Of a stretch of 64,000 nucleotides of DNA, positions 2,480-61,097 are shown in pieces; within the stretch, counting starts at the first letter, position 1, and every line of letters starts with the position of its first letter. The DNA comes from a virus. Taxonomy: Duplodnaviria; Caudoviricetes. The stretch spans positions 1,465 to 65,464 of IMG/VR virus record IMGVR_UViG_3300044641_006190. One strand, written 5' to 3'. The translations under genes and the position numbers were made by a program. The notes beneath the pieces were generated by a model, which made no database searches, had not been told where the DNA came from, and was given only the letters and a program-made list of their open reading frames with translations.

Positions 2480-4722
2480 TGGGAAAGTCGCTCCCGGGCG
2501 ATTTTGGCGGCCGCCTCGGCATCCTTGATAAGCATGTCTTGTCGGGCGGTCTCGTCACGGATGCGAAGGTCTTGCTGGTGCTTCTCCTCCGCCATCCGCA
2601 AACGGGTGCTCGTCTCGATGAGCTGGCGTTGGAGCGTGTCCGGGAGATTGTTTGGGTTGGCGGCGTTGGCCTCCGCTTCCGGCTGCTGTTGCTGCTCCTC
2701 CATCACCTTCTGCATGTGTTTGGTGGCGTTGTATAGGATGCCGTCGATCTCCTGCAACCGCTTCTTGATTTGGTTGTAGTCCGGCTCGCTGACAAGGTAT
2801 TGCGCGTGCTCGGAGGTGTGCTGGTGCAAAGCCGTGAGCGCCGGGGTGGCCTGCTCGACCGGAACCGTGCCTTCGTCCAATGCTTGAACAAGGGCTTCCT
2901 CCTCCGGCAGATGCGTGTCGAAGTGGACGCGGTGAAGCGTGTTCGGACGGACGGGAACTTGGTTGCCCTGCTTGAGCACGATGTTCTCAAGGGCGGCCAC
3001 TTCAACCTCCATCGGCGGACGGAGATTTTCGGGAGCCGGAGTGTAGCGGTCTGCCGCCTCAACGCCGCCAAGAGTGCGGGTGAGGTCACGGATGACCTGC
3101 TGGCGTCCTTGCGGATCGAAGTTGGCGGCGAGGGAGTAGAGCTTCTCCATGAGCGCCGAGCGAGCGGCGGAGGAACCCCCACCAACTGCACGCACCGCCT
3201 CGACACGCCCGACATCCACAGCCAGGATGGCCTCGATGGGCACTCCACGCGCCATGCACCGGTCGCGGAACTCCTGGACACTGCGACCGCCCGGGTCCTC
3301 GGGGAAGTAATCCTCGCGGACGGCGCGGCGGACAGTCTCGCGCAGCAGTCTTTCCCACGGGATGTAGAAGAGGTTCAACTGGGCAAGGCTGATGTTGGCC
3401 ACCGACTCAAGCTGTGCTTGCGTCTCAAACTTGGTGCGCTGACGCGCCGAGTTGAAGATCGCCTCGGTGGTGTAGGTGCCCGCCTGCTGCTGGAGCAAGG
3501 TGGACAAGTCATTGAGTCCGGGGATCAAGGACTGGCTGAAATTGGGCTGGTCTTTCTGAATGACCTTGATGTTCGGCGGCTTGACCACGAACGGACCAAA
3601 GTGGACGAGGCTCATGTCCTGCATGGCATCCTCGTTGTCCGGCTCGATCATGAGCATCGAACTTGTCATCAAGCTGTCGTAGAACCGTCCGCGCAGACGG
3701 TTGAGCGCCTGCACCACGGAGAAAATCTTGCTGGCCATGCCACGGATGCTGTGGAAGTAGCCGTTGGTTCCGATGCCAAAGACGAAGGTGTTGAACGCCT
3801 CGCTGGTGTTCGCATACCTGCCCTTGTTCTTGTAGAGGAAACCAACTTCGATGTCCGTGTCCTTCTCGGGGAAGATGTACTGGGAGATTTTCCCGTCCAG
3901 TTCCTTGGCCCACATGAACACCAGCTTCACCTCGGCGGCGGAAGCAGCGGAGGCGGCAAGGTCGTTGTTCTTGAACTCGCGCTGCAACTCCTCCCACGAC
4001 TCGATCGTGTTGGTTGATCTGCTGTGCTGCATCGCGCCAAGCAGCGCCTTCTTCACGGCGGGCACGTTCCAATGCAGCTCGGTGGCAAGCGCCTCGTCCT
4101 CGATCTTCTGGAAGAGTTCGTGCGGAGGGACGCTGCGCACAATGCAGCAAAGCTCGATCTCCTCGTCGGAGGCGCGGGTGTTGCGCGGGATGAGGAAGTC
4201 TCCCAAAGGAGCCACCTGCCAGCGCCAGTCGATCTCATCCTCGCGGAAACAAAGTCCGACGCCATGCACAAGGAACTGCTGGACCAGGAACAGGTAGCGG
4301 GGGAAGAACTCCGGCCAGTTGCGGACCATCCGGGTGAACTCGTCGGCCATGATGGACTCCCACTCGTGGCGCATCTGGGGGTCGCCATAGTTGGTGGGCA
4401 TCGTGTTGAGCACGTCCACCGAGGTCACCAGGTCCAAATACGGGCTCGTCGCCATTGAGACCAACTGCTCGCCCTGGCCCCAGTTGACGTTGCAAATCTC
4501 GCCAAGGCCGTTCATGTCGAGCTTGCTCTGGTCATACGGACTCTCGCCGTCGATCATCGACTGCACTTCTGCACGCCCGCGACGGGCATCCTCATCGGCC
4601 TTGAGCATCCGCTTGTAGGCGGCCTGCGCGGCCTTGGCATCCTTGATGCGGGATCGAAGCAACTGGCCGTCTTCCTGAACTGGAAGAAGGAGGTCTTGGG
4701 AAGTCGTCGGAGTTGGGTTCAT
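2476..4722 (-). CDS. Portal protein
   Basis: 748 aa, helical with a Q-rich coiled-coil C-terminus; downstream of the terminase. Confidence 0.75.
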   Translation of the reverse strand: MNPTPTTSQDLLLPVQEDGQLLRSRIKDAKAAQAAYKRMLKADEDARRGRAEVQSMIDGESPYDQSKLDMNGLGEICNVNWGQGEQLVSMATSPYLDLVTSVDVLNTMPTNYGDPQMRHEWESIMADEFTRMVRNWPEFFPRYLFLVQQFLVHGVGLCFREDEIDWRWQVAPLGDFLIPRNTRASDEEIELCCIVRSVPPHELFQKIEDEALATELHWNVPAVKKALLGAMQHSRSTNTIESWEELQREFKNNDLAASAASAAEVKLVFMWAKELDGKISQYIFPEKDTDIEVGFLYKNKGRYANTSEAFNTFVFGIGTNGYFHSIRGMASKIFSVVQALNRLRGRFYDSLMTSSMLMIEPDNEDAMQDMSLVHFGPFVVKPPNIKVIQKDQPNFSQSLIPGLNDLSTLLQQQAGTYTTEAIFNSARQRTKFETQAQLESVANISLAQLNLFYIPWERLLRETVRRAVREDYFPEDPGGRSVQEFRDRCMARGVPIEAILAVDVGRVEAVRAVGGGSSAARSALMEKLYSLAANFDPQGRQQVIRDLTRTLGGVEAADRYTPAPENLRPPMEVEVAALENIVLKQGNQVPVRPNTLHRVHFDTHLPEEEALVQALDEGTVPVEQATPALTALHQHTSEHAQYLVSEPDYNQIKKRLQEIDGILYNATKHMQKVMEEQQQQPEAEANAANPNNLPDTLQRQLIETSTRLRMAEEKHQQDLRIRDETARQDMLIKDAEAAAKIARERLSQ

Positions 4723-11943: not shown

Positions 11944-12167
11944 GCCGACCCCTCGATTTCATCTCCCTGCGCGACCCTCTCACAAACCGCACCACGTCGT
12001 TGGTGATCTACGGACGCCGCCCGGACCAAAACCAGCTTCTCGGAATCAGCGGAGGGCTTTCACATGGCTCCCTGGTGGAACCCAATTCCCACCAGGACGC
12101 CGACAAGCTCATCTACTGGCTCCAAGATTGGAAAACCCGCAACTCGAACAAAAACCAGAACCCATGA
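11940..12167 (+). CDS. Hypothetical protein
   Basis: 75 aa, coupled to neighbours. Confidence 0.6.
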   Translation: MSRPLDFISLRDPLTNRTTSLVIYGRRPDQNQLLGISGGLSHGSLVEPNSHQDADKLIYWLQDWKTRNSNKNQNP

Positions 12168-12790
12168 AAGAGACCGAACTTCAAAAACTAGCGCGACAGC
12201 TCGAAGCAGAAAGACTTGTGCAGATCGGTGGGACAGGCGAAGAATCAGCGCCCGAAGCCGCCCCTGAAAGTGAGCTGTCCAAACCTGACACGAGTAAGGG
12301 CGCGGTGGAAGGCGCAACACCAACTCCAAATGCAGAACAGGCTCAACAGAGTGGCAGTGTCAACCAAGGGCAAGACGGCGAAGCAAATCTCGCTGGAAAT
12401 GCGCCTCAAGGCGTGCCTGCGCAAGCTGCCAAGGGGCTGTCACAGGTGGATCAAGGAAACATCGCCGCAGGTGGAGCTGCTGCCGCTGCGAGCGTGGTGG
12501 ATCAGAAAGCTCACGCGGCAGCAACCTCGCTGAACAACGACCTTCCTCCGCCAAGCGAAGCCCAGAAGCAGGCGGGCAACTACAAGATGGGCCATCTCAA
12601 AGTCGGTGGTGTTGCCATCACCGTCGAGAACCCGGATGGCTCTCAGCGCACATGGAAGAACGAGGACACTGGCGAGGCTGGCCCCAGCACGATCCATGAC
12701 CACTATGGCTACATGAAGAACACTGTCGGCGCTGATGGTGATCACATCGACGTGAACACCAAGACCGGCAGACACCCAAACACACTATGA
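12164..12790 (+). CDS. Protein with a truncated polyvalent-protein-type InPase domain
   Basis: PSEAQKQAGNYKMGH...ITVENPDGSQR...HYGYMKNTVGADGDHIDV, then an abrupt end. Confidence 0.7.
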   Translation: MKETELQKLARQLEAERLVQIGGTGEESAPEAAPESELSKPDTSKGAVEGATPTPNAEQAQQSGSVNQGQDGEANLAGNAPQGVPAQAAKGLSQVDQGNIAAGGAAAAASVVDQKAHAAATSLNNDLPPPSEAQKQAGNYKMGHLKVGGVAITVENPDGSQRTWKNEDTGEAGPSTIHDHYGYMKNTVGADGDHIDVNTKTGRHPNTL

Positions 12791-16969: not shown

Positions 16970-17202
16970 GTTTCCCCACAGCACCCCCAAAAGATGACCT
17001 CCCCGGCTTCGGCCTGTCCCTTGCCATGGAGCACCTGAAAACCGAGATGACTTTCTTTGTCATCATCGGCAGCAAGACCGGTCACCCGGACGACATGACC
17101 TACGTCGAGGCCCATGTCCCGGACAACCGCATGCTGGAGCACTTCTGCGACCAGTTCTCCGCCGTGTGCCAGAAGATCAACTCAACCGGAAGCCTGGACT
17201 AA
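16966..17202 (+). CDS. Hypothetical protein
   Basis: 78 aa, coupled. Confidence 0.6.
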   Translation: MSFPTAPPKDDLPGFGLSLAMEHLKTEMTFFVIIGSKTGHPDDMTYVEAHVPDNRMLEHFCDQFSAVCQKINSTGSLD

Positions 17203-17206
17203 GATC

Positions 17207-17575
17207 ATGCCGCTCGCCGATTTTGAAGCAGCCTGGGAGAGACGCCGGAGGGAGCCCGCCCCGCTTGCCCCACGCCCATTGACAGTGGCGATCGACTTCG
17301 ACCACACATGGACAGCCGACCCGCACGGATGGCGGGACTGGTATGACTTCATGCTGGCGCGTGGGCATGTCGTGATCCTCGCAACCGGCCGGAGCGGCTG
17401 GAGCGAGGACATGGGAAGGGCGCACCTTCCTGCGCACATGCCAATCGTGTATTGCGGGCGTGAACTCAAAGAGCACGCGACACGAAAGGCGGGCTGGAAC
17501 GTGGACATCTGGATCGACGACATGCCCGGAATGATTCAACACTGCCACGTTCTTGACGACCAGGAGGTTCTGTAA
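17207..17575 (+). CDS. HAD-superfamily phosphatase-like protein
   Basis: AIDFDHT, LATGR, K, IWIDDMP motifs. Confidence 0.8.
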   Translation: MPLADFEAAWERRRREPAPLAPRPLTVAIDFDHTWTADPHGWRDWYDFMLARGHVVILATGRSGWSEDMGRAHLPAHMPIVYCGRELKEHATRKAGWNVDIWIDDMPGMIQHCHVLDDQEVL

Positions 17576-17620
17576 TCTTTGTGCCATAAAGATCAAACCA
17601 ACACCAACTATCTGAACTCT

Positions 17621-18502
17621 ATGAACCACCCCGACAATCTCCAGCAAATCGCAGACGACGCTTTCCTTGCGCTTCCAAAAGGAATTGGCTCTCTCGAATC
17701 AGACCCATCTGATTACCCTTATTGGGACAATGAAGCCCCTCACAGGCTGGCGATTGCCAAGCATATTCTGGATGCTGTTGGCAAGAAGTCTGAGTCCACA
17801 CCAAAGAATGAGTTCAAACTTCCAACTCCGCCACCGGGCATGAAGTGGCACCGTGAAGATGGATGGACTGAGGATATGCTTCCGCAGGGGCGGAGGCCGT
17901 TGATCTTGGAGGAAAAAATCATCTACGGGGTGGACGAGTATTCTTACCGCACTAACACCTGCGGGATATTTTGGTACACCCCCCGCCCTCTCACCTTCAC
18001 TCACGAAGGCCACGAATGGACATGGCACCGTCCGGGCGATCCAATGCCGTGCGATGGGGGGCGCGAGGTATGGGTGATCGGAGAAGATCACCGTGTCTGC
18101 CACCACGCTTGCCACCGTCCTTCCAAGGCAAAAACGTGGGCGTGGAAAAATACCACAAAACCCTACATCATCGGATGGCGCTACGCTGATGAGTCTCCAA
18201 AAGAAACCACACCAACCTCCATCTCCGACACCGCCAAGTCCATCGTTGCTGGCGACAGGGCCAAAGACTACGGTGACGCATCAGAGTCGTTTGCCCGCAT
18301 TGCCGCCCTGTGGAGCGCGTGGAAGGGTGTCGAGTTCACCTCTTGGGATGTGGCCATGATGATGATCCTCCTCAAAGTCAGCCGCGCAAAGACCGGCAAG
18401 AAGCAGGACACGCTGATTGACATCATCGGGTATGCGGAATGCGCGGAGAAGGTTGGAGGGAGCGCCTCGGATCAGACACCGCGAACCCAAGACCATGAAT
18501 AA
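17621..18502 (+). CDS. Modular protein with a C-terminal DUF6378-like domain
   Basis: IVAGDRAKDYGDASESFARIAALWS...DVAMMMILLKVSR...DTLIDIIGYA; ends inside attC-A. Confidence 0.75.
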   Translation: MNHPDNLQQIADDAFLALPKGIGSLESDPSDYPYWDNEAPHRLAIAKHILDAVGKKSESTPKNEFKLPTPPPGMKWHREDGWTEDMLPQGRRPLILEEKIIYGVDEYSYRTNTCGIFWYTPRPLTFTHEGHEWTWHRPGDPMPCDGGREVWVIGEDHRVCHHACHRPSKAKTWAWKNTTKPYIIGWRYADESPKETTPTSISDTAKSIVAGDRAKDYGDASESFARIAALWSAWKGVEFTSWDVAMMMILLKVSRAKTGKKQDTLIDIIGYAECAEKVGGSASDQTPRTQDHE

Positions 18503-18550
18503 CACGACCAGCGCACCAGAGCGGTTGTCCTGCATCCGATTTGTTCGGCT
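18460..18550 (-). mobile_element. attC-like site A (R' core degenerate, GCT instead of GTT)
   Basis: Minus strand AGCCGAAC-AAATC-GGATGCAGGACAACCGC...GCGGTGTCTGATCC-GAGGC-GCT; imperfect palindrome with extra bases on the R'' arm. Confidence 0.7.
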
Positions 18551-18914
18551 TTCGGTGCTTGATTTCATTGCGGTCATTCGTCGTTCGCGCCAAGACAGCG
18601 AGCGATTCTTTATGCGCGGCGGGTGCTGGGAAATGTTCTGCCTTCTGCGTAATGTCTGGCCAGAGGCTCAACCTTACCACTCATGGACTGACGACGTGAC
18701 TCTTGGTGTTGGGCAACATGTGGCGACGAAAATAGGAGATCATCTTTACGATATTCGAGGGCGCATCCGCAGGCCGTCATTGTATCAGCCCATGACGCTG
18801 ACATCGTGGCCGTCACTGCGTGGCGGTGATCGTCCGCATCGTTGGGCAAAGCACTACCGCAGTGAGCCGAACGCAGAGGTGAGGCACGGCGCGAAGGACG
18901 CCGACCTCGACTAG
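18495..18914 (+). CDS. Cassette 1 hypothetical protein
   Basis: Starts in the attC-A loop and stops in the attC-B loop; GGCW...H...YDIRG motif. Confidence 0.65.
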   Translation: MNNTTSAPERLSCIRFVRLSVLDFIAVIRRSRQDSERFFMRGGCWEMFCLLRNVWPEAQPYHSWTDDVTLGVGQHVATKIGDHLYDIRGRIRRPSLYQPMTLTSWPSLRGGDRPHRWAKHYRSEPNAEVRHGAKDADLD

Positions 18915-18952
18915 AGACTTTATCGCCGTTGCCTCGACCGTCTTGTTAGCGG
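18865..18952 (-). mobile_element. attC-like site B
   Basis: Minus strand CCGCTAAC-AAGAC-GGTCGAGGCAACGGCG...CGCCGTGCCTCACC-TCTGC-GTTCGGCT. Confidence 0.85.
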
Positions 18953-18989
18953 TTGGGAGCGGCAGGAAACCACAAGAAAACACCGAAAT

Positions 18990-19352
18990 ATGAAAGACAC
19001 CGAAATCAAAAACGCCGTGATCGAATCGGCAGAAATCACCATGGCAGAGCGCGGCATCTTGGATTGCTGGCTGCATCTCGACTTCGGAGGAATGGGGCAA
19101 GGCTTTGGAGGCTACGCGCTGTATCTGCCAAAATCGTTCAGCCATCACCAAGTCTTGAGCGTGGCTGGACATCACATCTTCCGCATCTTGGAAATCGCTG
19201 GTGTGGAAAAGTGGTCGCAACTGAAAGGACGCACCATCCGAGTGGAAGGATCGTGGTCGGAAATCAAGCGCATCGGCCACATCGTGAAAGATGACTGGTA
19301 TTGCCCCAGCGAGGATTTCAAGGCGGCTCTGGATTCTTCCGCTAACCAATAG
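18990..19352 (+). CDS. Cassette 2 hypothetical protein
   Basis: 120 aa (IKNAVIES...QGFGGYAL...AGVEKWSQLKGRTIR...IGHIVKDDW); stops inside attC-C. Confidence 0.75.
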   Translation: MKDTEIKNAVIESAEITMAERGILDCWLHLDFGGMGQGFGGYALYLPKSFSHHQVLSVAGHHIFRILEIAGVEKWSQLKGRTIRVEGSWSEIKRIGHIVKDDWYCPSEDFKAALDSSANQ

Positions 19353-19392
19353 CTCACCGACGCGAAGCGTTCGGTGCAGCGCAAGTTCTACG
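19339..19392 (-). mobile_element. attC-like site C (54 bp)
   Basis: Minus strand CGTAGAAC-TTGC-GCTGCACCGAACGC-TTC-GCGTCGGTGAGC-TATTG-GTTAGCGG. Confidence 0.8.
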
Positions 19393-19415
19393 CTGCTTAA
19401 TCCCACCCATTTCTC

Positions 19416-19865
19416 ATGAAACTGCTCGCCATTGACCCAGGAAAACACGGAGGTTTCGCTTTTGGCCCCACCGGCTCCATACCACAACTGTTCAACATGT
19501 CGGAAACCCCGCACGACATCTCGGAATGGTTCGAGGTCCACCGGCCGGAACGGCTTTTCATCGAGGAGGTCGGCGGCTATATCGGCGGCATGGGCGCACC
19601 CGGAAGCGCGATGTTCAACTTCGGACGTAACTTCGGGATTCTCCTCGGGGTCGCCGCCGCGTTCAAAGTGCCCACCGTGCTGGTACGTCCGCAGAAGTGG
19701 CAGAAAGCCCTCGGACTTGGAACCTCGACCGGTATGAGCAAAACAGAGTGGAAAAATAAGTTGAAAGCAAAAGCTCAGCAGCTATATCCGTCATTGAAGA
19801 TCACCCTGGACACGTCCGACGCCTGCCTCATCTGGCATGCCGCCGCGTTCAGACAAATCCAATGA
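19416..19865 (+). CDS. RuvC-like Holliday junction resolvase
   Basis: LAIDPGKHGG, FIEEV, SAMFNFG, PQKWQK, DACLI. Confidence 0.85.
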   Translation: MKLLAIDPGKHGGFAFGPTGSIPQLFNMSETPHDISEWFEVHRPERLFIEEVGGYIGGMGAPGSAMFNFGRNFGILLGVAAAFKVPTVLVRPQKWQKALGLGTSTGMSKTEWKNKLKAKAQQLYPSLKITLDTSDACLIWHAAAFRQIQ

Positions 19866-19868
19866 CCT

Positions 19869-20024
19869 ATGTTTTCCACCAGCCCTAAACCCGCACGTTT
19901 CCGCGTCACTTACCGGATTCAGAGCCGCGAATACTGGTTCACGATTCCGGCAATTTCAGCCAGCGCAATCTGGCGTTCGTGGGATCGTCTCGGTTCCACG
20001 CTAGTTGATGTCAGTGAAGTATGA
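19869..20024 (+). CDS. Small hypothetical protein (51 aa)
   Basis: Hand-translated MFSTSPKPARFRVTYRIQSREYWFTIPA...; fills the operon gap. Confidence 0.45.
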   Translation: MFSTSPKPARFRVTYRIQSREYWFTIPAISASAIWRSWDRLGSTLVDVSEV

Positions 20025-20036
20025 CTCGTAAAAGCC

Positions 20037-20231
20037 ATGACCAATAAACAACAACGAATCGCCATGCGCGAGGCGATCCGGGAGGCTGCAAAGGTGCTGT
20101 ATGCTACCGAGTTTAACAGTGGTAGAAACGGTGTGATCTGCCAAGTGTGTTTTGCTCACGTCTCGCAGGGCCATAAAGACGGTTGTGTGTTTGCCGCAGC
20201 CCTCGCCAAGCTCCAACCCTTCCTTCAATGA
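20037..20231 (+). CDS. Small hypothetical protein with CxxC..H..C
   Basis: 64 aa. Confidence 0.55.
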   Translation: MTNKQQRIAMREAIREAAKVLYATEFNSGRNGVICQVCFAHVSQGHKDGCVFAAALAKLQPFLQ

Positions 20232-20249
20232 CCCACGAAGCCCAATACC

Positions 20250-20849
20250 ATGCCCTACATTCTCTCCGATACTCCATCCATCGTCCGCTGCCTCGTCCGC
20301 AGGGAGTTCACCCAGAACCACCTGACCGGAAAAGGCCGGTATCTCAAAGCCCACATCCTCGGCGTTCGCTGCCAGGAAGCGGCGAGCCTCCAGTTCCAGG
20401 TTCGCTTCGAGGATCCCGACTGCGCGGGGGCCATGTTCTGCCTGCCGATCCAAGCCCTGTGCTGGAAGGAGTGTGCGATACCCGATGCGGAGCTGATCCA
20501 GCCTTGGGATACGTTCAGCAGCCACTTCACCGTGCATGAGTTCGGCCTGTGGAAACGCGGCAACGCTCAACTGCTCAACGTGCGCAAGATCAAAGGCCAC
20601 CCAGCCCGGCTGGACGCCCGATACTTGTTCACCATCGACTTCGAGGGCAACGCTTTGTCGGATTGCCCGCAACAACATAAGCAGTTGCATCTTTTACAGG
20701 TTGATGCCGGGTGGTTTGCCGCCGTGCCGAACAACCGAGTGTTGAGCGTGGACACGGCATTTGAGAAGCCTTGCGAACAGCTCCCGCGCTTCGAGTCCCT
20801 TGAACATCTTTACACGGCTGAATGCCGGATTGGAGAACCCACACCATGA
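20250..20849 (+). CDS. Hypothetical phage protein
   Basis: 199 aa globular ORF, coupled to the next gene. Confidence 0.75.
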   Translation: MPYILSDTPSIVRCLVRREFTQNHLTGKGRYLKAHILGVRCQEAASLQFQVRFEDPDCAGAMFCLPIQALCWKECAIPDAELIQPWDTFSSHFTVHEFGLWKRGNAQLLNVRKIKGHPARLDARYLFTIDFEGNALSDCPQQHKQLHLLQVDAGWFAAVPNNRVLSVDTAFEKPCEQLPRFESLEHLYTAECRIGEPTP

Positions 20850-21013
20850 GCAAAGCACTAGCAGACATCCCCGAAGAAGAACGCCGCATGAAAATCCGCC
20901 GAGCCCTGTCCATGCACAAGGACGGCTGGTCAAAGCACACCATCGAACGCCGACTCAGAACCCAGTGGAGTTCGATCATGAAATGCGGCAAGGAACTTGG
21001 ACTCATCAAATGA
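20846..21013 (+). CDS. Small hypothetical protein
   Basis: 55 aa, ATGA-coupled on both sides. Confidence 0.55.
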   Translation: MSKALADIPEEERRMKIRRALSMHKDGWSKHTIERRLRTQWSSIMKCGKELGLIK

Positions 21014-23593: not shown

Positions 23594-24108
23594 ACGAACT
23601 GTTTTACCCCCACTCCGAGGAACAGGAGACCTATCCGATCTACGAACTCCCGGGCTTCCTGACCGACGAGGAGATCAAGTTTTTCCGCGACTACATCGAC
23701 CAGGTGAACTTCCGCCAGAAAATTCTCGCGGACTCGAAGATCGCCAAGGTCATCGAGGCCAAAGTACGTCAGCACAATTTCCCGGATGCCGGGACTTTCT
23801 ACGGGTGCTCCAAGGAGATCACCGTCTCCAAGCACGTCGCGCCTTTCCATATCGCCACCCACAAGGACAACCGCAAGGACGAGGGGCGCAAAAAGAACCT
23901 CAAGAAACTCTTCGTCTATCTCGACGAGGACGAGGAAACCCCCGACAGCGGCGGAACCATCTTCCTGGACAAGAACCGGAAGCCGGTGGCCACCATCAAA
24001 CGGGAGCGCGGAAAAGCGTGCTTGTTTGACATCCGGCAGCTCCACAAAGGACAGAAACTTGTCAAAGGCACCAAGTACCTCATTGGCACACGCCTGCTCT
24101 ACTCCTAA
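23590..24108 (+). CDS. 2OG-Fe(II) oxygenase (prolyl-4-hydroxylase-like)
   Basis: FLTDEEI, HKD, VYL, GGTIF, LFD...LHKG...KGTKY. Confidence 0.8.
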   Translation: MNELFYPHSEEQETYPIYELPGFLTDEEIKFFRDYIDQVNFRQKILADSKIAKVIEAKVRQHNFPDAGTFYGCSKEITVSKHVAPFHIATHKDNRKDEGRKKNLKKLFVYLDEDEETPDSGGTIFLDKNRKPVATIKRERGKACLFDIRQLHKGQKLVKGTKYLIGTRLLYS

Positions 24109-24113
24109 TCGCT

Positions 24114-24626
24114 ATGCCCAGACCACTTGCACCCAAAGGCGGCAATGATCGCGTTTATACTCCGCCCGCGCTGGCCAAGGCCATCGTGGACCACTTCAAT
24201 CCCGCGACTTCCGCCTGCGTTCTTGAGCCGTGCGCCGGTCCCATTGGCAAACAGGCATTCGTGGACGCTCTGATCGACTACGACCTTGGTTGGTGCGAAC
24301 TCGATGAAGGGACAGACTTCTTCACAAGAAGTCCAACGTCGTTTCGCTACGACTGGGTTATCACCAACCCGCCGTGGTCCAAGCTCCGGGCCTTCCTCAA
24401 GAAATCCATGGAGTGCTCAAACAACGTCGTGTTCCTCTGCTTGGTGAACGCCTTCTTCATGAAGGCCCGCCTCAAGGACATGGCAGACGCGGGCTTCGGC
24501 ATGAAGGAGATTCTCTTTGTACCAACCCCACCAAAGCCTTGGCCACAGACCGGATTCGCTCTCGGGGCGGTTCATATCCAGCGCGGATACACTGGAAATG
24601 TGACGCTCAGCAAATTGAATGAATAA
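24114..24626 (+). CDS. Amino (N6-adenine-type) DNA methyltransferase
   Basis: VYTPP, LEPCAG, DFF, ITNPPW. Confidence 0.8.
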   Translation: MPRPLAPKGGNDRVYTPPALAKAIVDHFNPATSACVLEPCAGPIGKQAFVDALIDYDLGWCELDEGTDFFTRSPTSFRYDWVITNPPWSKLRAFLKKSMECSNNVVFLCLVNAFFMKARLKDMADAGFGMKEILFVPTPPKPWPQTGFALGAVHIQRGYTGNVTLSKLNE

Positions 24627-24712
24627 AACCACTTGCGCTTCCCTAGCATCTCTTTATCTCACCACTGTTCGCTAACCACGCGACGTTCAACATAACCAAC
24701 ACCCAATACACC

Positions 24713-25384
24713 ATGGCTAAAATTGCTATCAACCCTGCGGCACCTGCCACCTCCCCCTCCTCCCAAGAACTCACTGCTCCGGCTTCCTCGCATGAACTTG
24801 CGGTGGGCATCCCCGGCCAGTTTGAAGGAGAGTTCACCTCCCGTGACTTCGCCATCCCGTCTCTGGTCGTCTGCCAGAAATCCGGCAAGCTCATGGATGA
24901 CAACCCCGCATGGCTCGGCCACTTGATCTACGACAAGTGCCTTGACCTCGGCGCGTCGGCCAAAGCCGTCTTCTTCCGTGTGAAGCGTTACTTCATCGAA
25001 GACCTGCCCTTCGGCAGCGACGGTATTCCCCGCAAGTTCGACACCGTTGCCGAGGCCCGCGAGGCTGGCGTTGACGTGGCGGACATCGCGGAACTCGACT
25101 GCCTCATCCAGGTTCCTGCCGACTTTGACGGCGGTGAGCAGATCGGTGACGCCCACTACGCGCCTGCCCGTTACACGGTTCGCAGCACCGCGTTCCGCGC
25201 CACGGTTCCGATCCTGCGCAAGGATGTGAGCCTCCGTCTCAAGGGCAACCTTGCCGCAGGGGTCTATACCATCTCGGCGGTCAAGAAAACCTACGGGCCG
25301 AACTCCTGGTTTGCTCCGCAGCTCGCGGCAGCCGGAGCCACCCCGGACGTTGTCCTCCAATACATCGCGGAAAAGCTCGCCTGA
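24713..25384 (+). CDS. Probable ssDNA-binding/replication protein
   Basis: 223 aa with strong codon bias, own promoter candidate (TTGCGC-N16-TATCTC, 24633-24660) and terminator; lies between exonuclease and polymerase. Confidence 0.5.
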   Translation: MAKIAINPAAPATSPSSQELTAPASSHELAVGIPGQFEGEFTSRDFAIPSLVVCQKSGKLMDDNPAWLGHLIYDKCLDLGASAKAVFFRVKRYFIEDLPFGSDGIPRKFDTVAEAREAGVDVADIAELDCLIQVPADFDGGEQIGDAHYAPARYTVRSTAFRATVPILRKDVSLRLKGNLAAGVYTISAVKKTYGPNSWFAPQLAAAGATPDVVLQYIAEKLA

Positions 25385-27882: not shown

Positions 27883-28492
27883 TATCCTAGACTGCGGGCC
27901 TCGGCACCGTTTCTGCACGCCTTGGGCGGTGGCCCACAACTGTTTGGGCCTTGGCTTCGGTCTTGGCGCGGCACGTTTCCAATCCTACGCCAAAACCATC
28001 GCAGGTCTCGATCTCACCGCCGAGGAGTCCGAGCGCACCGTCAACCAGTTCCGGGCGTCGAACCCAAAGATCGTCGCCGTGTGGAACAACCTCGGCCGCG
28101 CCCTTGCGGTTGCCAGCCGCGAGAAGGACCGGACTTTCGAGATGGAACTGCCCTCCGGCAGAACCATCCGGTATTGGGACGTGGTCCAGACCCGTGACGG
28201 CATGTTTGTTCGCCGTGAGCGCGGCGGCGAACGCGTGAAGATGTTCCCTGGCAAGCTGTTCGAGAATCTCGTTCAGGCCACCGCCCGTGAAGTCTTCGCC
28301 CTCGCCATCCAGCGCATCGAGCAGGCCGGGGTCGCGGTTGTCATGCACACCCACGATGAAATCATCTGCGAGATTCCCGATGACATGGACGGAGCGGCGG
28401 TGATCCCGCCGTTGATGACGGAAATCCCGCCGTGGGCCGCAGGTCTGCCCGTGGGTGTCGAGTTCACCACCAGCCAGTATTATGAAAAGTAG
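27848..28492 (+). CDS. polA: C-intein (31 aa) fused to the C-terminal part of DNA polymerase A
   Basis: MSGVDGCEPVYDILDCGPRHRFCTPWAVAHN|CLGLGFG, LPSGR, ENLVQATAR, motif C HTHDE. Confidence 0.88.
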   Translation: MSGVDGCEPVYDILDCGPRHRFCTPWAVAHNCLGLGFGLGAARFQSYAKTIAGLDLTAEESERTVNQFRASNPKIVAVWNNLGRALAVASREKDRTFEMELPSGRTIRYWDVVQTRDGMFVRRERGGERVKMFPGKLFENLVQATAREVFALAIQRIEQAGVAVVMHTHDEIICEIPDDMDGAAVIPPLMTEIPPWAAGLPVGVEFTTSQYYEK

Positions 28493-28655
28493 TGTAGAAA
28501 CTATCGCCACAGCACAATCCGTGCTTGACACGTTTGACTTGCTTGTTCCTTTGCTGGAGAAGGCCGCCGACAAATGCGAGGACTTGTCCGATGAAGTGGA
28601 CGAGGCTCTCGATTCGATCGGCGATTGCCGGACTCTCCTGAAAAAGATCAAGTAG
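28482..28655 (+). CDS. Small coiled-coil hypothetical protein
   Basis: 57 aa. Confidence 0.5.
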   Translation: MKSSVETIATAQSVLDTFDLLVPLLEKAADKCEDLSDEVDEALDSIGDCRTLLKKIK

Positions 28656-28684
28656 CTCCACCATCTCCTCATAGCCATCTAACC

Positions 28685-30859
28685 ATGTTCAAATTTTTAA
28701 GAAATCTTTCCGCAGCTTCCGTTGAGGATTTCCCGCTTCCTCCGAACTCCCCCATCACACGTCCATCTTTCGACTCGAAGGACGCTTTCCGTCGCTGGTG
28801 CCTCCAGCCTGACACCGACCACTTCTTCGTTTCCGCCATGTCCGGACTGGCCGAAGTCCAGCGGGTTTCCCAAACCAACCAGCCGTTGAAGATGTTTGGC
28901 TACGTCGCCGACTTCGACACGCGTTATGCGGGCGACCCGGTTGCGCAGGTGGTGGCCAACACCGACCCTGAGTTCCGGCCGCGCTGGCTTTCCCGGACGT
29001 TCTCCGGCGGCATCCGTGCATGGTATGTCTTTGAGGCACCCATGCTGTTCCACGATGACAAGGTGGGGGTAAAGTTCATTGAGCGTGTGATCCGGGGCCT
29101 TGGAGTCCGGGCGCTGTTCCCCGGTTTCGACACCCAGGCCACGAAGCAGTATTGGCAGTACTTTGAGGCGGGCACCGACTGGGTGGAAGTCCCCGATTCC
29201 GGCACCATTCCGCTTGTCCATCTGGAAGGATGGATGTCGGACTCCATCCTCCTCTCCGCCCGCAACGCGAAACGTGGCCGCATCGCCGTGCCGTTCGACA
29301 AGGTGAAGGAGGCGCTCATCGCCCGCTATCCTGGAGTCTGGCCGGGCGGGTGGGACAACTTCGTTGTCGGGGCTCGCGGCACTCGTTTCTGGGACAATGG
29401 AAACGCGCAATCCTGCCTTGTGCGAGAGGATGGGATCACCTGCTTCACGGGCGACCGTGGCTTTGTCTCGTGGGCCGACCTGCTTGGCCGCGAGTGGGAG
29501 CAGCGCAACACTGACGAGGTTGTCGGAGCCGCCATCGAAGGCATCTACTTTGAGTGCGCCGCCAACAAGTACTGGCGCAAGGTCGCGGGCATCGGCTGGC
29601 AGCCTTTGCAGAAGGAGGACCTCAAGCTGCACTTTCGCATCTCCGGCATCTCTGACGAACGTGCGCGGGGCGAGACGCTCTCCCCCGTTGACCGCCTCAT
29701 TCACCAAGTCCAGATCACGCATCCAGTGGCCGGGACGTTCCCCTTCCACTACAAGCAGGCGGACGTGGTTTATGTGAACAACCAGCCGTTCCTCAACACC
29801 TCCCGCGCCGTGCTTGCCCAGCCGGACGGCTCCGCCAGCGGACGTTGGGGAGACGGATTCCCGAAGCTGGCCGCCTACTTCGAGGGGCTCTACGACCGGG
29901 CCGACAACGAGGAGCAGTTTGCGCATGCCATGGGGGCGCTCATGCACTTCTACCAGACCGCCTACGCCGGAGATGTCCAGCGCGGACGTGTCCAGATGCA
30001 CGCCGGACCTCCGGGAGCGGGCAAGACCTACCTCTTGATGGTCAAAGGGAACATCTTTGGCGCGGTGGAGGATGCCGCCCGGTATCTCTTCGGGCAGGAC
30101 AGCTTCAACGGCACCCTCTGCCACGCGCCTCTTTGGGGTGTGGACGATCCGGTGTCCGCCGCCAACACCAAACTTGGCATGGTCTTCTCGCAGATGCTCA
30201 AAGCCGTCGCGGCGTGCGACAACATCCCGGTGCGCGGCATGTATCGAGAAGTCCAGCGCCTCCCCTGGCTCGGGCGCGTGATCGTCAACATGAACGACGA
30301 TCCCGAGTCCATCCGCATGCTGCCTTCCACGGAGATCAACTTGATGGACAAGGTTGACCTCTATGCCATCCAGCGTCCGTTCACCGGCAAGTTCCCAAGC
30401 AACGCGGAGATTCAGGCGGAGATACCTGCGTTCTGCACCTTCCTGCTTGAAGGCCGGGCATGGCTGGAAAGTCTGGTTCCCGACCTGTTCAGCGATCCTC
30501 GTTGGGGCACCAAAAAATACCACCACCCACGGCTCGTGGCCATCGCACAGGGAGCACAAACCTCCACGGCGGTTGAGGAGCTGCTGCGCCTGTGGCGCAA
30601 GATGTGGTTCGCGGTCGCCCAGGACGATGTGTGGACGGGAAACCCCACCGAGCTTCTGGATGCGATCAGCCAGATGGAGTCTCTGCGGGACATCTACCGC
30701 ACCGTCGTCAACAGCCCGCAGGCTCTCGGACGTTCACTGGCACAGCTCTGCAACCGCGAGGCTCCTCCTTCGTGGCTGCGGTCGCTCAACAACTCACAGC
30801 GCGAGTATTCCATCTACCGGAACGAGATGGGCGCGGTTATCAACGCAGACCCCTACTGA
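28685..30859 (+). CDS. Primase-helicase (AEP-like primase plus SF3-like ATPase)
   Basis: ADFD, TFSGG.R; Walker A GPPGAGKT, Walker B WGVDD, NMN. Confidence 0.75.
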   Translation: MFKFLRNLSAASVEDFPLPPNSPITRPSFDSKDAFRRWCLQPDTDHFFVSAMSGLAEVQRVSQTNQPLKMFGYVADFDTRYAGDPVAQVVANTDPEFRPRWLSRTFSGGIRAWYVFEAPMLFHDDKVGVKFIERVIRGLGVRALFPGFDTQATKQYWQYFEAGTDWVEVPDSGTIPLVHLEGWMSDSILLSARNAKRGRIAVPFDKVKEALIARYPGVWPGGWDNFVVGARGTRFWDNGNAQSCLVREDGITCFTGDRGFVSWADLLGREWEQRNTDEVVGAAIEGIYFECAANKYWRKVAGIGWQPLQKEDLKLHFRISGISDERARGETLSPVDRLIHQVQITHPVAGTFPFHYKQADVVYVNNQPFLNTSRAVLAQPDGSASGRWGDGFPKLAAYFEGLYDRADNEEQFAHAMGALMHFYQTAYAGDVQRGRVQMHAGPPGAGKTYLLMVKGNIFGAVEDAARYLFGQDSFNGTLCHAPLWGVDDPVSAANTKLGMVFSQMLKAVAACDNIPVRGMYREVQRLPWLGRVIVNMNDDPESIRMLPSTEINLMDKVDLYAIQRPFTGKFPSNAEIQAEIPAFCTFLLEGRAWLESLVPDLFSDPRWGTKKYHHPRLVAIAQGAQTSTAVEELLRLWRKMWFAVAQDDVWTGNPTELLDAISQMESLRDIYRTVVNSPQALGRSLAQLCNREAPPSWLRSLNNSQREYSIYRNEMGAVINADPY

Positions 30860-31780: not shown

Positions 31781-32034
31781 AATCCTACTCCACCGCCCCG
31801 CTCAACACCCGCCAGCATCCGCTCGACCTCCTGAACGACATCCGCGCAGCCCTCGACGAGACGGCCCGCATCAACAGCCTCGGCATCAGTTTCGACCTCT
31901 CGGTTGAACCGGCTTCCGGCCTCCCGTTGGATGTTGATCCTCCGACCTATCTTACGATCTATGACGAACGCAGCAACGATCTCCTCGGGGAGCCTGCTTG
32001 CGATGTCGGCGGCCCCTGCGAGAGCTGCCAGTAA
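31777..32034 (+). CDS. Hypothetical protein ending ACDVGGPCESCQ
   Basis: 85 aa with a Cys-rich tail. Confidence 0.6.
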   Translation: MKSYSTAPLNTRQHPLDLLNDIRAALDETARINSLGISFDLSVEPASGLPLDVDPPTYLTIYDERSNDLLGEPACDVGGPCESCQ

Positions 32035-32128
32035 AATCATGCCGGAGTCGGGTGTTCGAGCCACCCCAAGTTAGCCTTCTTGTAGTGTAGCGGAAACATA
32101 GCCGGGGCGGAAGATAAAAAGGCACCTT

Positions 32129-32619: not shown

Positions 32620-32790
32620 CTCCCATACTAGGCGCACCCGAGGCGAAAGCCACGAGAGGGCGTGAGGGATGGCCGCAACACCTAGTAGAAGGCACGGCCC
32701 CTAACCCCGTTCAGGTAAATGCGGAGGCGAACGTCGCCTATCCAATAGCGGGTATCAACGAATGACGTGACAGCCGGAGAGACGGCCTTT
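32620..32790 (+). ncRNA. Structured RNA 4
   Basis: TACTAGG/CCTAGTA stem, GGC-GAAA-GCC and GCCG-GAGAGA-CGGC hairpins; no credible ORF. Confidence 0.45.
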
Positions 32791-32890
32791 GTTTGTTATG
32801 ATGACCCCGACTGGAGAGTGGGGGCTGCGAGATGCTCGCGGCGCTATTGACGACTTGACCGGGCAGGCGCAACTTTCCAGCCCCGGAAAC

Positions 32891-32931
32891 AGCCTCCTCC
32901 GTTTCAGCGATGAAGCGGGGGAGGTTTTTTT
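32891..32931 (+). terminator. Intrinsic terminator closing the RNA cluster
   Basis: gcctcctccgtttca-gcga-tgaagcgggggaggt followed by a T-tract. Confidence 0.75.
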
Positions 32932-32986
32932 GTCTTATAGAGCGAAAACACTTGCTAACAAAAGTCTAATAGATAAATACTCCGGC

Positions 32987-34141
32987 ATGACCCACGACAC
33001 CATCACAGTCAAAGGGCGGGAATTTCCGCTCTACAAAGAACCTTCCACCGGATACTGGCGCGTGCGCAAACGGACACGCGATGTGTCCATCAACAAATCC
33101 ACCCGCATCTCCGATCTCGCCGAGGCCCGTAAATGGGCGCGTGTGTTCATCGAGCGGGAGCTGAACAACAGCTATCGTCTGGCCACCGGAGGACACACGC
33201 TTGAGGAGGTTGCCGCCGCGTATCTATCTTTCCCAAAGGCCGCCCGCGAATACGTCGCCGAGGCCAACGTGGCCCGCCTGCGCACCGTGGTCAGGGAAGC
33301 CCTTGGCAAGGAGCTGTGTGAAGTCCGCGTCAAGGACATCGGCCCGCGTCTGTGGGAGCAATACGCCGCCTCCAGACACGGCGGCAGGCTCGATCTGTCC
33401 ACCCCGCGCCGGGAGAACATTGGCATCATGTCGGCCCTGCGCAGCGCGGCCAGCGTCTTCGCCCGCAAGCTCGACCGCCGCTACAAGGACGCGGGCATCT
33501 TCCTTGACTTCGCCAACATGCGCGAGCTTCCATTCCTGCCGGTTCTACACGTTCACCGCCAGCCGGTTTCCGCTGACGCCATCCAGTCGCTCACAATGGC
33601 CTGGAAGTCGCTCCGGCAGGACAATCCGCTGCTCTACACCACCATCGGGCTGGCCCTCCATGCGGGGCTCCGCGCCTCGGAGATCGCCGCCGCCCGCCGC
33701 AACTGGATCGAGACTGACGGCAGCGCCGTCCGTGTGATCCTGCGTGACCGGCCGGAGGAAGGTTTCCGCACCAAAGGCAAGGTGGACAGCTCGGCATGGG
33801 TGAGCGGCTTGGTGCTCGACATCGAGTTCGCCGCGCACCTGCTTTCACTGCCGGACGGCCTCCTGGTTCCGGTTGAAGGAAGCAAGGCATGGTTCTTCAA
33901 GACCATCGTCAATCAATGGGTGCGCCAGTTCATCCCACGAGAACTCGACGGTAAAGGATTGCACCGCCTGCGCGGACTCTACGGTGACGCCGTGAAGTCC
34001 CGTTTCGAGGCCCAGATTCTTGCCCGCACTGCGTCGATCGACGCCGCACGCCTGGCTCTTGGCCACACCTCTGCCGCGATCACTTTGCGGAACTATCTGA
34101 CGCCGGACGCTGCCAGCACCACTCCGGGTAATCTAGGCTAG
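32987..34141 (+). CDS. int: Tyrosine recombinase/integrase
   Basis: GLRASEI, TKGK, LHRLR, LGHTS...ITLRNY; arm-binding-like N-terminus. Confidence 0.88.
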   Translation: MTHDTITVKGREFPLYKEPSTGYWRVRKRTRDVSINKSTRISDLAEARKWARVFIERELNNSYRLATGGHTLEEVAAAYLSFPKAAREYVAEANVARLRTVVREALGKELCEVRVKDIGPRLWEQYAASRHGGRLDLSTPRRENIGIMSALRSAASVFARKLDRRYKDAGIFLDFANMRELPFLPVLHVHRQPVSADAIQSLTMAWKSLRQDNPLLYTTIGLALHAGLRASEIAAARRNWIETDGSAVRVILRDRPEEGFRTKGKVDSSAWVSGLVLDIEFAAHLLSLPDGLLVPVEGSKAWFFKTIVNQWVRQFIPRELDGKGLHRLRGLYGDAVKSRFEAQILARTASIDAARLALGHTSAAITLRNYLTPDAASTTPGNLG

Positions 34142-34673
34142 TTCTGATCTCGAAATCCTGGATGACATCCAAAGGCAGATGAACCTTGGCCCGTAGGACG
34201 CACCCGCAAACGCGGCAGGACTCCAAAGCCCTGTCCCGTTGGGTGGTCCTACCGGCCAGGAACTTCGTCACCTGCGTAAGGATTCCACCACAGCCCCAGC
34301 AACCAGTCACGTCCCCGTTGAAGGGGCAAGTGGAGCAGATTGCCGCACGTCGCTCGGCCTCCTCTTGCGGCACGAACTTGCCGCCAAACTTGAGGACGGT
34401 GTTCATGAACCGGCGAAGGTCTGCAATCGTCAGGGACCGCTTTGATACATCCACCGGCCTGTCCGAGCATGGCACCTGCAAGTTCTGACGGCACAGGTCG
34501 TCTTGGAAACGCTCCTCCCACCCTTCGGCCAGATCGTAGCCCATGGCTTTGCGGTGGAGGCGAACCTGATCAATGATGCCCCAGTAGGACAACCCGTGGA
34601 AGACGGCACCGGATTCCGGCTGCACATACTTCCACTGGTTCGAGGTTCCACGGGACTTGTTGGTCACTCTCAT
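34080..34673 (-). CDS. Cys-rich hypothetical protein
   Basis: RAAICSTCP, CWGC, CRVCGC, WCW; 62-bp convergent overlap with int. Confidence 0.7.
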   Translation of the reverse strand: MRVTNKSRGTSNQWKYVQPESGAVFHGLSYWGIIDQVRLHRKAMGYDLAEGWEERFQDDLCRQNLQVPCSDRPVDVSKRSLTIADLRRFMNTVLKFGGKFVPQEEAERRAAICSTCPFNGDVTGCWGCGGILTQVTKFLAGRTTQRDRALESCRVCGCVLRAKVHLPLDVIQDFEIRTSLDYPEWCWQRPASDSSAK

Positions 34674-46600: not shown

Positions 46601-47755
46601 CCCGGCTCCGAGCATGAATCCAGTTCCGTAGAGCGCGGCAGGGGCGACCTCCTTGGCCCCACGGATAACCCCCTCCACTCCGGCATAAGGGTTGGCGACC
46701 TTGGACGGGTCTTCGCCTCGCAGGACTGCTTCCATCTTGGCTTGGTCCCATCCCTGGCCACCGACCTGCGTGGCAGTTTCTCCGGCTACTTCCAGAGCGG
46801 CGTCGGCAGCAAGCAAGCTGCCCTTGCCCAGAGCGGACTTTGCGATCTTAGAGAGCGCATTTTTCCCGAGCCCAAACACTGCCTGACCGACGCCAAAAGT
46901 CAGCGCGTTGGAGATACCTTCCGGTCCGGCCTCCCACATGCCAGTATTCTGGGCGATAGGAAGCAGTTGCTTGTAAAGATCGTCCTTTTCCTCCCTGGAG
47001 AGGGAGCGTCCGGCGTTCTTCTCCGCCAAGGAGAAGGCATCACGAAGGAACTGGTTCCCCGCCATGGTGTAGGCGGCCCCGCCGGAGGCCAGCGCCCCGC
47101 CGAGGAATCCGCCGATCTGCTGACCAAGGAAAGAGCCAAGACCGACAGCGGCCGGAGTAGCCACAGCTCCCGCGCCAGTGGAGACGGCTCCGGCTCCGCC
47201 AAGCCATCCACCGATAGCTCCGCCAGCCATTCGGCCTGGAACACTGCCCGCCGCAGCAGATGCCATGGCGGCAGTAGAGAAGCCGGAGCTGGGGGCGAAC
47301 TCACGAGCGGCAGAGCCAAACGAAGTGGCCTCTCCCTTGGCTTCGAGATCGGCCTGCTTCGTCCGAATCTCCTCATCGAAGGCGTCTTTCTCGGCCATCG
47401 CCTGCTTGTATTCAGGCGTCCATTCGTCTGGATGTGTGAGTCCTTGCCGGAGCTGGTAGTATGCTGCTTTGGTGCTGACCGGAATACCGCGCAGCACATC
47501 CCAAGTTGAAGATAGTGCATCGCTGGCGCTGATGAACGGGCGATCTTTGGGTGCTTCTGGTGTCGGGACAGAATACTGACTGCTCTTGCTGGTGACAAAC
47601 TCGTCGAGCGTCGTGACTTCCTCGGGAGACAGGTTTTGTCCGGCCTCGAAGTCCGCCCTCCATTTCAGCAGAGACGTGGTTTTCTGTTCGGGAGTGAGCG
47701 TCGAAAAGTCAGGGAGACTTTCGACCTCATCCCATCGCGGAAGGGAAGTCGGCAT
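34670..47755 (-). CDS. Giant polyvalent virion/ejection protein (DarB-like architecture)
   Basis: Gly/Ala-rich hydrophobic N-region; SF2 motifs [30 protein letters not shown] and HEMIH zincin motifs; helical C-terminus. Confidence 0.85.
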
Positions 47756-47798
47756 CCCGGAAGATTTCCCCACCTCGGAAATAAATCAAGCCAAGTCC

Positions 47799-60588: not shown

Positions 60589-61097
60589 GGGTTTTCGGCG
60601 GCGTTTGGATTCAAAAGCATGAACTTGGGGATGTCCGCCGTCGTGCCGATGAGCAGCGGCGAAACAGCCAAGTCGCCGGGGGAAACCTCGGCAGAGGGGA
60701 TGCGCAGGAGCAGGCGCAGCCCGCCAGCCGCGAGGGCTTTATGGACGAGTTCGGAGCAGAACCACTTCCCATTGTCACGGGCAGGGCGTTTGGAGACAAA
60801 CCGGGCGACGCTCCAGTAGTCGTAGGGCATGCCGAGTTGAGCATGGGCGAAATCGAGCGCGATGCGCCACGTTAGAGGGTCAGCGCCGACCACATCGAAC
60901 AAATCGACGTTTGCCCATTCTTCTGGCGAATACTCATGCACGCGCACGCCCTTGAACTCGCGGCTTTCGATCACCGTTCGCTCGGTGTGTGGTAGCAGGA
61001 TGGCCGCATGCGAGTAGATGGAGCGGGTTTGCCACTGGATGAGTTTGGAGACGGCCCCCGAACCGCGAAACAAGGCTACTTTGGGGGTGGGAGTCAT
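60585..61097 (-). CDS. Permuted papain-like NlpC/P60 enzyme (YiiX/YaeF type)
   Basis: YSHAAI...GMPYD...WFCSELV...SPGDL. Confidence 0.85.
   Translation of the reverse strand: MTPTPKVALFRGSGAVSKLIQWQTRSIYSHAAILLPHTERTVIESREFKGVRVHEYSPEEWANVDLFDVVGADPLTWRIALDFAHAQLGMPYDYWSVARFVSKRPARDNGKWFCSELVHKALAAGGLRLLLRIPSAEVSPGDLAVSPLLIGTTADIPKFMLLNPNAAENP

Follow-up and report, generated by a model that had tools for sequence, protein, structure and literature searches.

A probable two-cassette integron-type array without an integrase, with reversed genes, in an operon of a lake-water phage

Introduction

Phages are already known to carry clusters of integron attachment sites. From a screen of 10,705 phage genomes, Qi et al. 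2023 report three complete integrons and 17 CALINs, that is, clusters of two or more neighbouring attC sites that share an orientation and have no integron integrase near them; IntI1 recombined five of the six phage attC sites that were tested, and five methyltransferases were found among the CALIN cargo (PMC9892861). In phage TJE1 three attC sites are reported, and the two that were assayed were both recombined by IntI1 (PMC9892861). The locus described here lies in a stretch of 64,000 nucleotides, hereafter the window, which comprises bases 1465-65464 of the 65,464-bp IMG/VR virus record IMGVR_UViG_3300044641_006190 (Caudoviricetes). We consider it highly probable that positions 18456-19392 of the window are a two-cassette integron-type array without an integrase, in other words a CALIN, set inside a phage operon and carrying three attC sites in one orientation.

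As far as that paper describes them, the CALINs of Qi et al. resemble the present array in having integron-type attC sites without an integrase and units of one gene each, and methyltransferase cargo recurs as well, with five in that set and two in the second arrays of the relatives treated below. The evidence differs in kind, being detection plus an IntI1 plasmid assay in Qi et al. and natural presence, absence and replacement among relatives, read from sequence alone, in the present case. The listings and abstracts from our literature searches contain no report of reversed-polarity phage cassette arrays or of natural cassette turnover among related phages, and the supplementary tables of Qi et al. 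may hold reversed cases. Because phage CALINs are published, the kind of element is already known; the new part is the reversed orientation of the genes and the natural turnover of the cassettes.

In T4-type phages, stem-loop-flanked accessory genes of a hyperplastic region are reportedly shuffled as modules through PeSL elements, an account credited to Arbiol et al. 2010 in which circles are said to have been proposed and the elements are said to be repeated sequences that recombine by homology. The present sites are unlike PeSL elements in that they have a common structure with little common sequence, and in that their junctions lie at a fixed triplet. Integron integrases are also described as inserting at attG sites, which are double-stranded, have a short GWT consensus and show no strand bias (10.1101/2022.09.11.507474), a route that could let IntI seed cassettes into a genome without attI (10.1101/2022.09.11.507474).

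Anatomy of the sites and cassettes

The array region sits in a + strand operon made up of a DUF6378 gene, a YunG-like gene, a phrog_30930 gene and then a RuvC-like resolvase gene. Its sites and cassettes are as follows, with a slash marking the crossover point:

18456..18550, bottom strand on +: attC site S1, atypical; the minimum-free-energy (MFE) fold gives this hairpin
18463..18871, +: cassette 1, 409 bp, bounded at the canonical AA/C (here AG/C) crossover
18865..18952, bottom strand on +: attC site S2, canonical; R' box AGCCGAAC, R'' box GTTAGCGG
18872..19345, +: cassette 2, 474 bp
19339..19392, bottom strand on +: terminal attC site END1, minimal; R' box CCGCTAAC, R'' box GTTCTACG

Read on the + strand, the sites are imperfect palindromes at 18461-18545, 18870-18947 and 19344-19387, each folding as a single hairpin, and this strand has an AACG start and a YTTGTT end, like real attC bottom strands. 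The earlier note on this DNA had described three palindromes framed by AAC and GTT, which holds for S2 and END1 and fails for the first site, which starts AGC. It had also remarked on extra bases in the R'' arm as read on the minus strand; in all three sites the single-base bulges are indeed confined to the 3' arm of the + strand, the counterpart of that R'' arm, and the genes have the recombinogenic strand as their sense strand.

The two regular sites follow the expected layout closely. S2 has 5-nt spacers, 3 bp, a bulged G, 6 bp, a bulged T and 5 bp, with its boxes at 18865-18872 (AGCCGAAC) and 18945-18952 (GTTAGCGG), and END1, whose R' box CCGCTAAC lies at 19339-19346, has 3 bp, a bulged C, 6 bp, a bulged T, 3 bp and a GAA loop. 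Both have the AAC and GTT triplets, inner boxes 5-6 nt away and extrahelical bases on the '' arm only. S1 has GTT but AGC: its R' box (18456-18463) ends AGC rather than AAC, its R'' box GTTCGGCT stands at 18543-18550, and its stems (18467-18482 and 18521-18539) are interrupted by three bulges of one base each, all of them in the 3' arm. It thus deviates in its triplet, in its 3-nt spacers and in having one bulge too many, and its R'' box is complementary at 8/8 positions to the far end of cassette 1.

The four 8-mers that had been placed at 18543, 18865, 18945 and 19339 are there, and the complementarity claimed between neighbouring cores is exact over all eight bases: two of the 38 YTTGTT sites on the + strand of the window have an exact 8-mer reverse-complement partner at most 3 kb away, and both are array sites. 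GTTCGGCT and AGCCGAAC both lie within the YunG-like coding sequence (18495-18914). On the + strand, a cassette consists of an attC site (AAC, spacer, imperfect hairpin, spacer, GTTxxxxx), a ribosome-binding site, one gene and a tail xxxxx, and that tail together with the next AAC is complementary to the cassette's own GTTxxxxx box. When, in ten units, the 8-nt box after the hairpin was compared with the sequence formed by the far end of that unit and the following AAC, complementarity was 8/8 in six, 7/8 in one, 6/8 in two and 5/8 in one, as against 2-6/8 for the box that merely adjoins it in the array. Complementarity to its own end means that an excised circle would rebuild a complete attC site.

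G/TT on the top strand is AA/C on the + strand, and the gaps of 474 and 883 bp seen in relatives fit this position within a 3-nt ambiguity. Circles of 402 and 440 bp had been predicted, sizes that are wrong because crossovers were assumed at GTT on the + strand rather than at the observed AAC; the units that vary between relatives are 409 and 474 bp.

Resemblance to proven attC sites

As proven integrons we used two from phage records named in PMC9892861, the class 1 arrays of the P1 isolate MH445380 (L039) and a Vibrio phage integron (L040). The class 1 bottom strands read AAC, a 5-6-nt spacer, 3 bp, an extrahelical base on the 3' arm, 6 bp, an extrahelical T and an inner stem, and end in a 5-nt spacer followed by GTT. 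The present array repeats this layout in its spacers (5-6 nt), in its stretches of 3 bp and 6 bp, each followed by an extrahelical base (G or C, then T), and in its inner stem, and likewise in its AACG and TTGTT bottom-strand flanks and in the complementarity of each cassette to its own box. It differs in that class 1 arrays carry resistance cargo, whereas here the genes are phage genes of unknown function and reversed polarity, the upstream genes read into the next attC site, and no intI was found.

A rigid template was drawn from seven class 1 attC bottom strands (after AAC and 5-6 nt come 3-4 bp, a 3'-arm bulge of 1 nt, 6-5 bp, another bulge of 1 nt and 3 bp, and the far end has 4-5 nt and GTT; at most one mismatch in 12 pairs). 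Over both strands of the 15 kb of L039 it recovers all seven class 1 attC sites and nothing more, and it finds none of the 11 Vibrio-type sites, so that it recognises class 1 geometry specifically and cannot serve as a general detector. In the window it matches exactly twice, at 18870-18947 and 19344-19387, both on the + strand with 0 mismatches and with extrahelical G and T in S2 and C and T in END1; there are 0 matches on the minus strand, no further match with 0-1 mismatches in the whole 65,464-bp genome, and 0.05 matches per strand in 20 Markov resamples. All 13 template matches in the related genomes G001-G004 fall in the two arrays described below, on the gene-sense strand. A relaxed template (A[AG]C start, spacers of 4-6) adds the site of the DUF5406 unit found in one relative, with a null of 0.03. 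Across seven other loci (53,400 bases) the template matches three times, in L019 and L024, at copies of the END1 site and of the site of a 388-bp unit, and it gives 0 matches in the unrelated loci L001, L008-L011 and L017, of which L008 and L009 are distant phrog_30930 homologues.

A separate observation concerns L009, where a 63%-identical phrog_30930 homologue (3837-4419) in an unrelated lower-GC phage stands between GTTATAAG (3900) and CTTATAAC (4412). The locus shows no canonical attC geometry, and the pair of 8-mers may be a diverged cassette or chance.

A covariance model, R1, was built from four aadA-type class 1 attC bottom strands and run without filters on the whole window. It gives a single significant match, at 18874-18944 on the + strand (S2; 27.2 bits, E 2e-5), with both bulges aligned. 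On L039 and L040 it recovers its four training sites and cmlA1 (37.7 bits) and, at E <= 10, misses every one of the 11 Vibrio attC as well as two of the seven class 1 sites, those of estX and dfr; since R1 is this narrow, its misses on S1 and END1 are uninformative. Its five best matches in G001 and G002 are all array sites on the gene strand. Phage TJE1 has exactly three significant matches, one at the 3' end of each of orf1-3 (30.7, 28.0 and 21.4 bits), and the score of S2 is comparable to these. The covariance-model check suggested by the earlier note, with minus-strand matches expected, turned out as foreseen for S2: a bottom-strand model matches the + strand, so that a top-strand model would match the minus strand.

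S1 is found neither by the rigid template nor by R1. A gathering scan of the window against Rfam returned 0 matches, which carries no weight either way; we know of no attC family in Rfam. An MFE-based genome scan for hairpins framed by AAC and GTT was dropped, as it gave hundreds of matches and did not recover the known sites, and so was a flexible arm-alignment score under which shuffles scored as high as real sites.

Turnover of cassettes among related phages

Protein and pattern searches yielded six related viral contigs and one metagenome contig. The terminal-site pattern was found in one metagenome contig, apparently of the G001 phage, and among viral contigs only in these six; the one match in the genome contigs lies inside an apparent MnmG/GidA-type gene (read by eye), shows no similarity to the present phages and was set aside as chance. 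The 24 sequencing runs that contain the stretch are lake-water metagenomes.

Among these contigs the same locus stands in four different states. It is empty in G004/L015, where the DUF6378 gene runs directly into the terminal site and ends AAC CAA TAG, cassettes 1 and 2 being jointly missing (883 bp). It holds the YunG-like unit only in G002/L016 and L004; the relatives of this state lack window positions 18873-19346 (474 bp), with AAC flanking the gap on both sides, and the cassette 2 block is missing, with a 3-nt AAC ambiguity, in L003/L004/L016. Two units, YunG-like and phrog_30930, occur in the window and in G003. In G001, cassette 1 is swapped as a block for a 451-bp DUF5406 unit, cassette 2 is kept at 99.6% identity beside this different left neighbour, and a 388-bp unit encoding a 90-amino-acid membrane protein has been added before the terminal site. 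S1 is the junction both of the replacement in G001 and of the closure in the empty relative. END1 is kept in seven of seven related contigs and has a homologue in the site that closes a second array in G001/G002.

This second array, of like build and with four to five units, lies directly after a DnaB-like helicase gene in G001 and G002 and is absent from the window phage:

G002 35400-37450 (L030 15400-17450); G001 66800-67561 and 1-1480 (L025): second array

Here a 727-bp unit with an N6_N4 methyltransferase, bounded at AAC, is present in G002 only, and the last unit or units are replaced between the genomes, a Dam methyltransferase occurring in G001 only.

Every junction falls at an AAC (the first at AGC) that opens a palindrome, and for each of the indels of 474, 883, 388 and 727 bp the two ends coincide with AAC, give or take an ambiguity of 3-4 nt. 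We count at least five separate events of gain, loss or replacement with both ends at AAC cores. The comparison of relatives that had been proposed as a check therefore shows units gained, lost and replaced exactly at the AAC/GTT cores.

The surrounding genomes have little in common. Only 1.6-2.9 kb of the 64 kb of the window phage align to G001-G004 at the nucleotide level, and the largest shared block (17622-19399; 93-99% identity) opens with the start codon of the DUF6378 gene and closes shortly after the R'' box of END1. Other short islands shared with G001-G004 are 19887-20020 (90-96% identity), 24119-24586, 32034-32124 and 61094-61537. A 93-99% identical module in otherwise diverged phages indicates that the array moved recently between them.

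Lake-water contigs, from four of the 24 runs, start or stop at 18870, 19344 and 19393, and in one of them unrelated sequence abuts the terminal site. Contigs show presence and not process, so ends at cores are a weak hint only; the contigs of these four runs list no joints and speak neither for nor against circles.

These data bear on the best-surviving alternative, which is that the array is a fossil: genuine attC sites captured once from a bacterial integron or CALIN and no longer recombined, the differences among relatives having arisen by flank recombination and chance deletions. The transfer of module 17622-19399 in one piece, between phages that are unrelated elsewhere, would suit such an origin, as would the degenerate first site (AGC) and the lack of an integron integrase in any of the phages. 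Flank recombination or slippage, however, would not have placed the 388-bp and 727-bp insertions where they are, nor do these processes sit well with at least five events whose two ends lie at AAC cores, with the branching of lake-water contigs at 18870, 19344 and 19393, or with perfect 8/8 boxes retained in six of ten units. We therefore judge a fossil array improbable.

Orientation of the cassette genes

The genes on and beside the array, all on the + strand, are:

17622..18502, +: DUF6378 gene (PF19905, E 4.5e-26), fixed left flank of the array
18495..18914, +: YunG-like gene (PF24591, E 5.1e-15; phrog_4814), cargo of cassette 1
18990..19352, +: phrog_30930 gene (phrog_30930, E 1e-15), cargo of cassette 2
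19416-19865, +: RuvC-like resolvase gene, following the array in the window

The family, PHROG and Atlas matches of the cargo are phage-type, in keeping with what the earlier note had supposed, and the nearest Atlas clusters of the phrog_30930 gene are viral hypothetical proteins. The earlier note was likewise right that the genes run antisense to the attC orientation. Bottom-strand tools match the gene strand in the window and the opposite strand in class 1 arrays and TJE1; the bottom strand here is the sense strand, in contrast to TJE1, where it runs antisense to the genes. No cassette gene is co-oriented with the attC top strand and followed by its site: attC precedes its gene in nine of nine one-gene units of the two arrays and follows its gene in class 1 arrays and TJE1.

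Gene starts lie within or just past attC, and the sites also supply the ends of the genes upstream. The DUF6378 gene, which is listed from 17579 and whose nucleotide similarity to relatives begins at the ATG at 17622, takes its last 14 codons (18461-18502) from the attC of the first cassette. The YunG-like gene starts inside the S1 loop and has its last 14 codons and stop inside the attC of cassette 2, and the final two codons and stop of the phrog_30930 gene are supplied by the terminal site. In relatives without cassette 2, the match to the YunG-like protein covers residues 1-126, after which the reading frame closes in the terminal site, with one residue past the junction, as compared with 14 extra residues in the window. 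Upstream genes without a stop of their own thus read into the next attC, and the C-terminal tail of the YunG-like protein differs by neighbour.

The recombinase and a proposed working

The window encodes one candidate recombinase:

32789-34141: tyrosine integrase, divergent (phrog_1, E 4e-13; PF00589, 15.6 bits, below cut-off; no TIGR02249 match)

It is the sole recombinase found in the window phage, lies 14 kb from the array and, lacking a match to TIGR02249 (the IntI family), agrees with the earlier view that the local integrase is not an IntI. Its presence in the window phage, set beside the absence of a PF00589 match in G001-G005, means that the array-sharing phages differ in lifestyle genes. 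Three sites within 937 bp, on the same strand and in a genome with no TIGR02249 match, make up a CALIN; the locus is not a complete integron, no IntI having been found, with attI and Pc not searched for as such. Because the array phages have no integron integrase, the array is a CALIN and the enzyme must come in trans.

The earlier note supposed a phage gene-shuffling system that borrows the IntI of the host or another recombinase, and the acting enzyme is presumably the IntI of the host; intI genes are under SOS control. We propose that the + strand, once single-stranded, would fold into the attC hairpins, and that an integron integrase from the infected host, acting in trans, would cut AA/C in the R' box and exchange strands between two attC sites. 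Such an exchange would excise a cassette as a circle of 409 or 474 bp or insert a circle from elsewhere, replication would resolve the recombination product, and the phage operon would transcribe the cassette genes, each inserted cassette giving the upstream gene a new C-terminal tail and stop. Exchange of this kind presumably continues today.

Another recombinase with folded single strands as its substrate could be at work on the same attC-like sites, either a Xer-type enzyme of the host or an unrecognised phage protein. The reversed polarity and the AGC of the first junction are unlike a textbook integron, no IntI was found, and in the window a RuvC-like resolvase gene (19416-19865) comes after the array. 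That gene does not adjoin the array in the relatives, however, and G000-G004 encode no Y1 transposase (PF01797), no serine recombinase and no further tyrosine recombinase. The geometry, including both extrahelical bases at canonical distances, is that of class 1 attC sites, and S2 scores like attC sites that IntI1 is reported to recombine (PMC9892861). We regard a different enzyme as unlikely, and as somewhat less plausible again than the fossil.

Weighing of the evidence

A number of findings count against the interpretation of the locus as an integron-type array, and against its acting with a host integrase. The 65,464-bp window genome and G001-G005 contain no TIGR02249 match, and G001-G005 contain no PF00589 match, G001 being rated 100% complete. 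A large-terminase search of the genome contigs found no relative, and no bacterial relative was found; only seven related contigs are known, all from lake-water samples. Full box complementarity is wanting in four of ten units, all cargo genes are reversed relative to canonical cassettes, and S1 is atypical, with AGC as its R' triplet. R1 scores END1 at 8.9 bits (E 7.3, not significant) and does not match S1, and the template and covariance model are both home-made. The folding energies of the three sites compared with shuffles (z = -0.3, -1.2 and -2.4) are not significant; hairpin stability is unexceptional, and so the case cannot rest on energy.

The first junction is the least regular point. 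It reads AGC in all filled arrays (window 18461-18463) and AAC in the empty relative (L015 1898-1900), which again speaks against a canonical array; it fits a canonical AA/C exchange only with one substitution in the flank, the alternative being a cut one or two bases further 5'. The attG route of Loot et al. could, as far as that preprint describes it, explain the first seeding of a phage. The present junctions differ from attG in that, with one exception, they fall within full attC sites; the exception is the first, whose top strand has GCT, unlike GWT.

The remaining possibility is ordinary mosaicism, in which the hairpins would be RNA-level or regulatory border elements, the junctions the outcome of selected illegitimate recombination and the 8-mers a coincidence. 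Mosaic structure at gene borders is usual in phage genomes, a start codon marks the exact beginning of the shared island, the hairpin stabilities are unremarkable, and single inverted 8-mer pairs are common in 64 kb. Yet the template and model matches are genome-unique and strand-specific, the bulges are confined to one arm and keep fixed distances from GTT, and neither RNA function nor mosaicism gives a rationale for 8/8 complementarity of points 300-400 nt apart in six of ten units; the sites have no long direct repeats in common, and within 17000-21000 none of six terminator-like sites and no promoter-like site falls on them. The template, R1, the TJE1 control and the box complementarity have already largely refuted this explanation, which we consider very improbable indeed.

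Simpler candidates were rejected outright: IS200/IS605-type single-strand transposition (no Y1 transposase, and one hairpin per unit rather than at both ends), a serine recombinase mechanism (none encoded in G000-G004), exchange driven by homology between repeats (the sites have no long direct ones in common) and intrinsic terminators (none of the six terminator-like sites in 17000-21000 coincides with the three sites).

Other features of the genomes

The 65,464-bp record has direct terminal repeats, of 142 bp by our own count. On the minus strand of the window, positions 34670-47773 form an open frame of 4367 amino acids, very large for a 65-kb phage. Window positions 12128-12790 encode a protein of 220 amino acids with a C-terminal InPase domain (PF18823); the PHROG entries that it matches best are internal parts of very large proteins, of virion or DarB-like type.

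Some further insertions distinguish the relatives. G003 28237-29151 (915 bp) and G001 24067-25074 (1008 bp) are clean insertions relative to sister genomes, and their translations begin in an intein-like manner, with Cys or Ala followed by a Hint-like stretch (by eye). A 191-bp insertion at G001 58312-58502, missing from G003, has terminal inverted repeats of about 18-20 nt and resembles a miniature inverted-repeat element.

Implications

Whether phages make use of attC sites was, according to their text, left open by Qi et al. In the present series a single locus is seen without cassettes, with them, with a replacement and with an addition, always at the recombination triplet, and such a series at the exact triplet is the signature of cassette traffic in the wild. 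That every cassette is reversed relative to the integron rule suggests cassettes adapted to reading from a phage operon rather than stray bacterial cassettes. The array module itself travels between unrelated phages, and the system is small and precisely defined, with two cassettes (409 and 474 bp) and three sites, which makes it directly testable.

More tentatively, we raise the possibility that lake phages keep a gene-shuffling platform of their own, with reverse-polarity cassettes that are private to phages and silent in a bacterial integron, and with the host integrase hijacked to swap accessory genes between co-infecting unrelated phages. We think this conceivable rather than likely. In such a system the recombinogenic strand would be the sense (non-template) strand, which phage transcription and replication would expose, and the swapped genes would include orphan DNA methyltransferases that could blunt restriction. 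If the host integrase does act on these sites, integrons would also be a phage tool, one for shuffling accessory and possibly anti-restriction genes.

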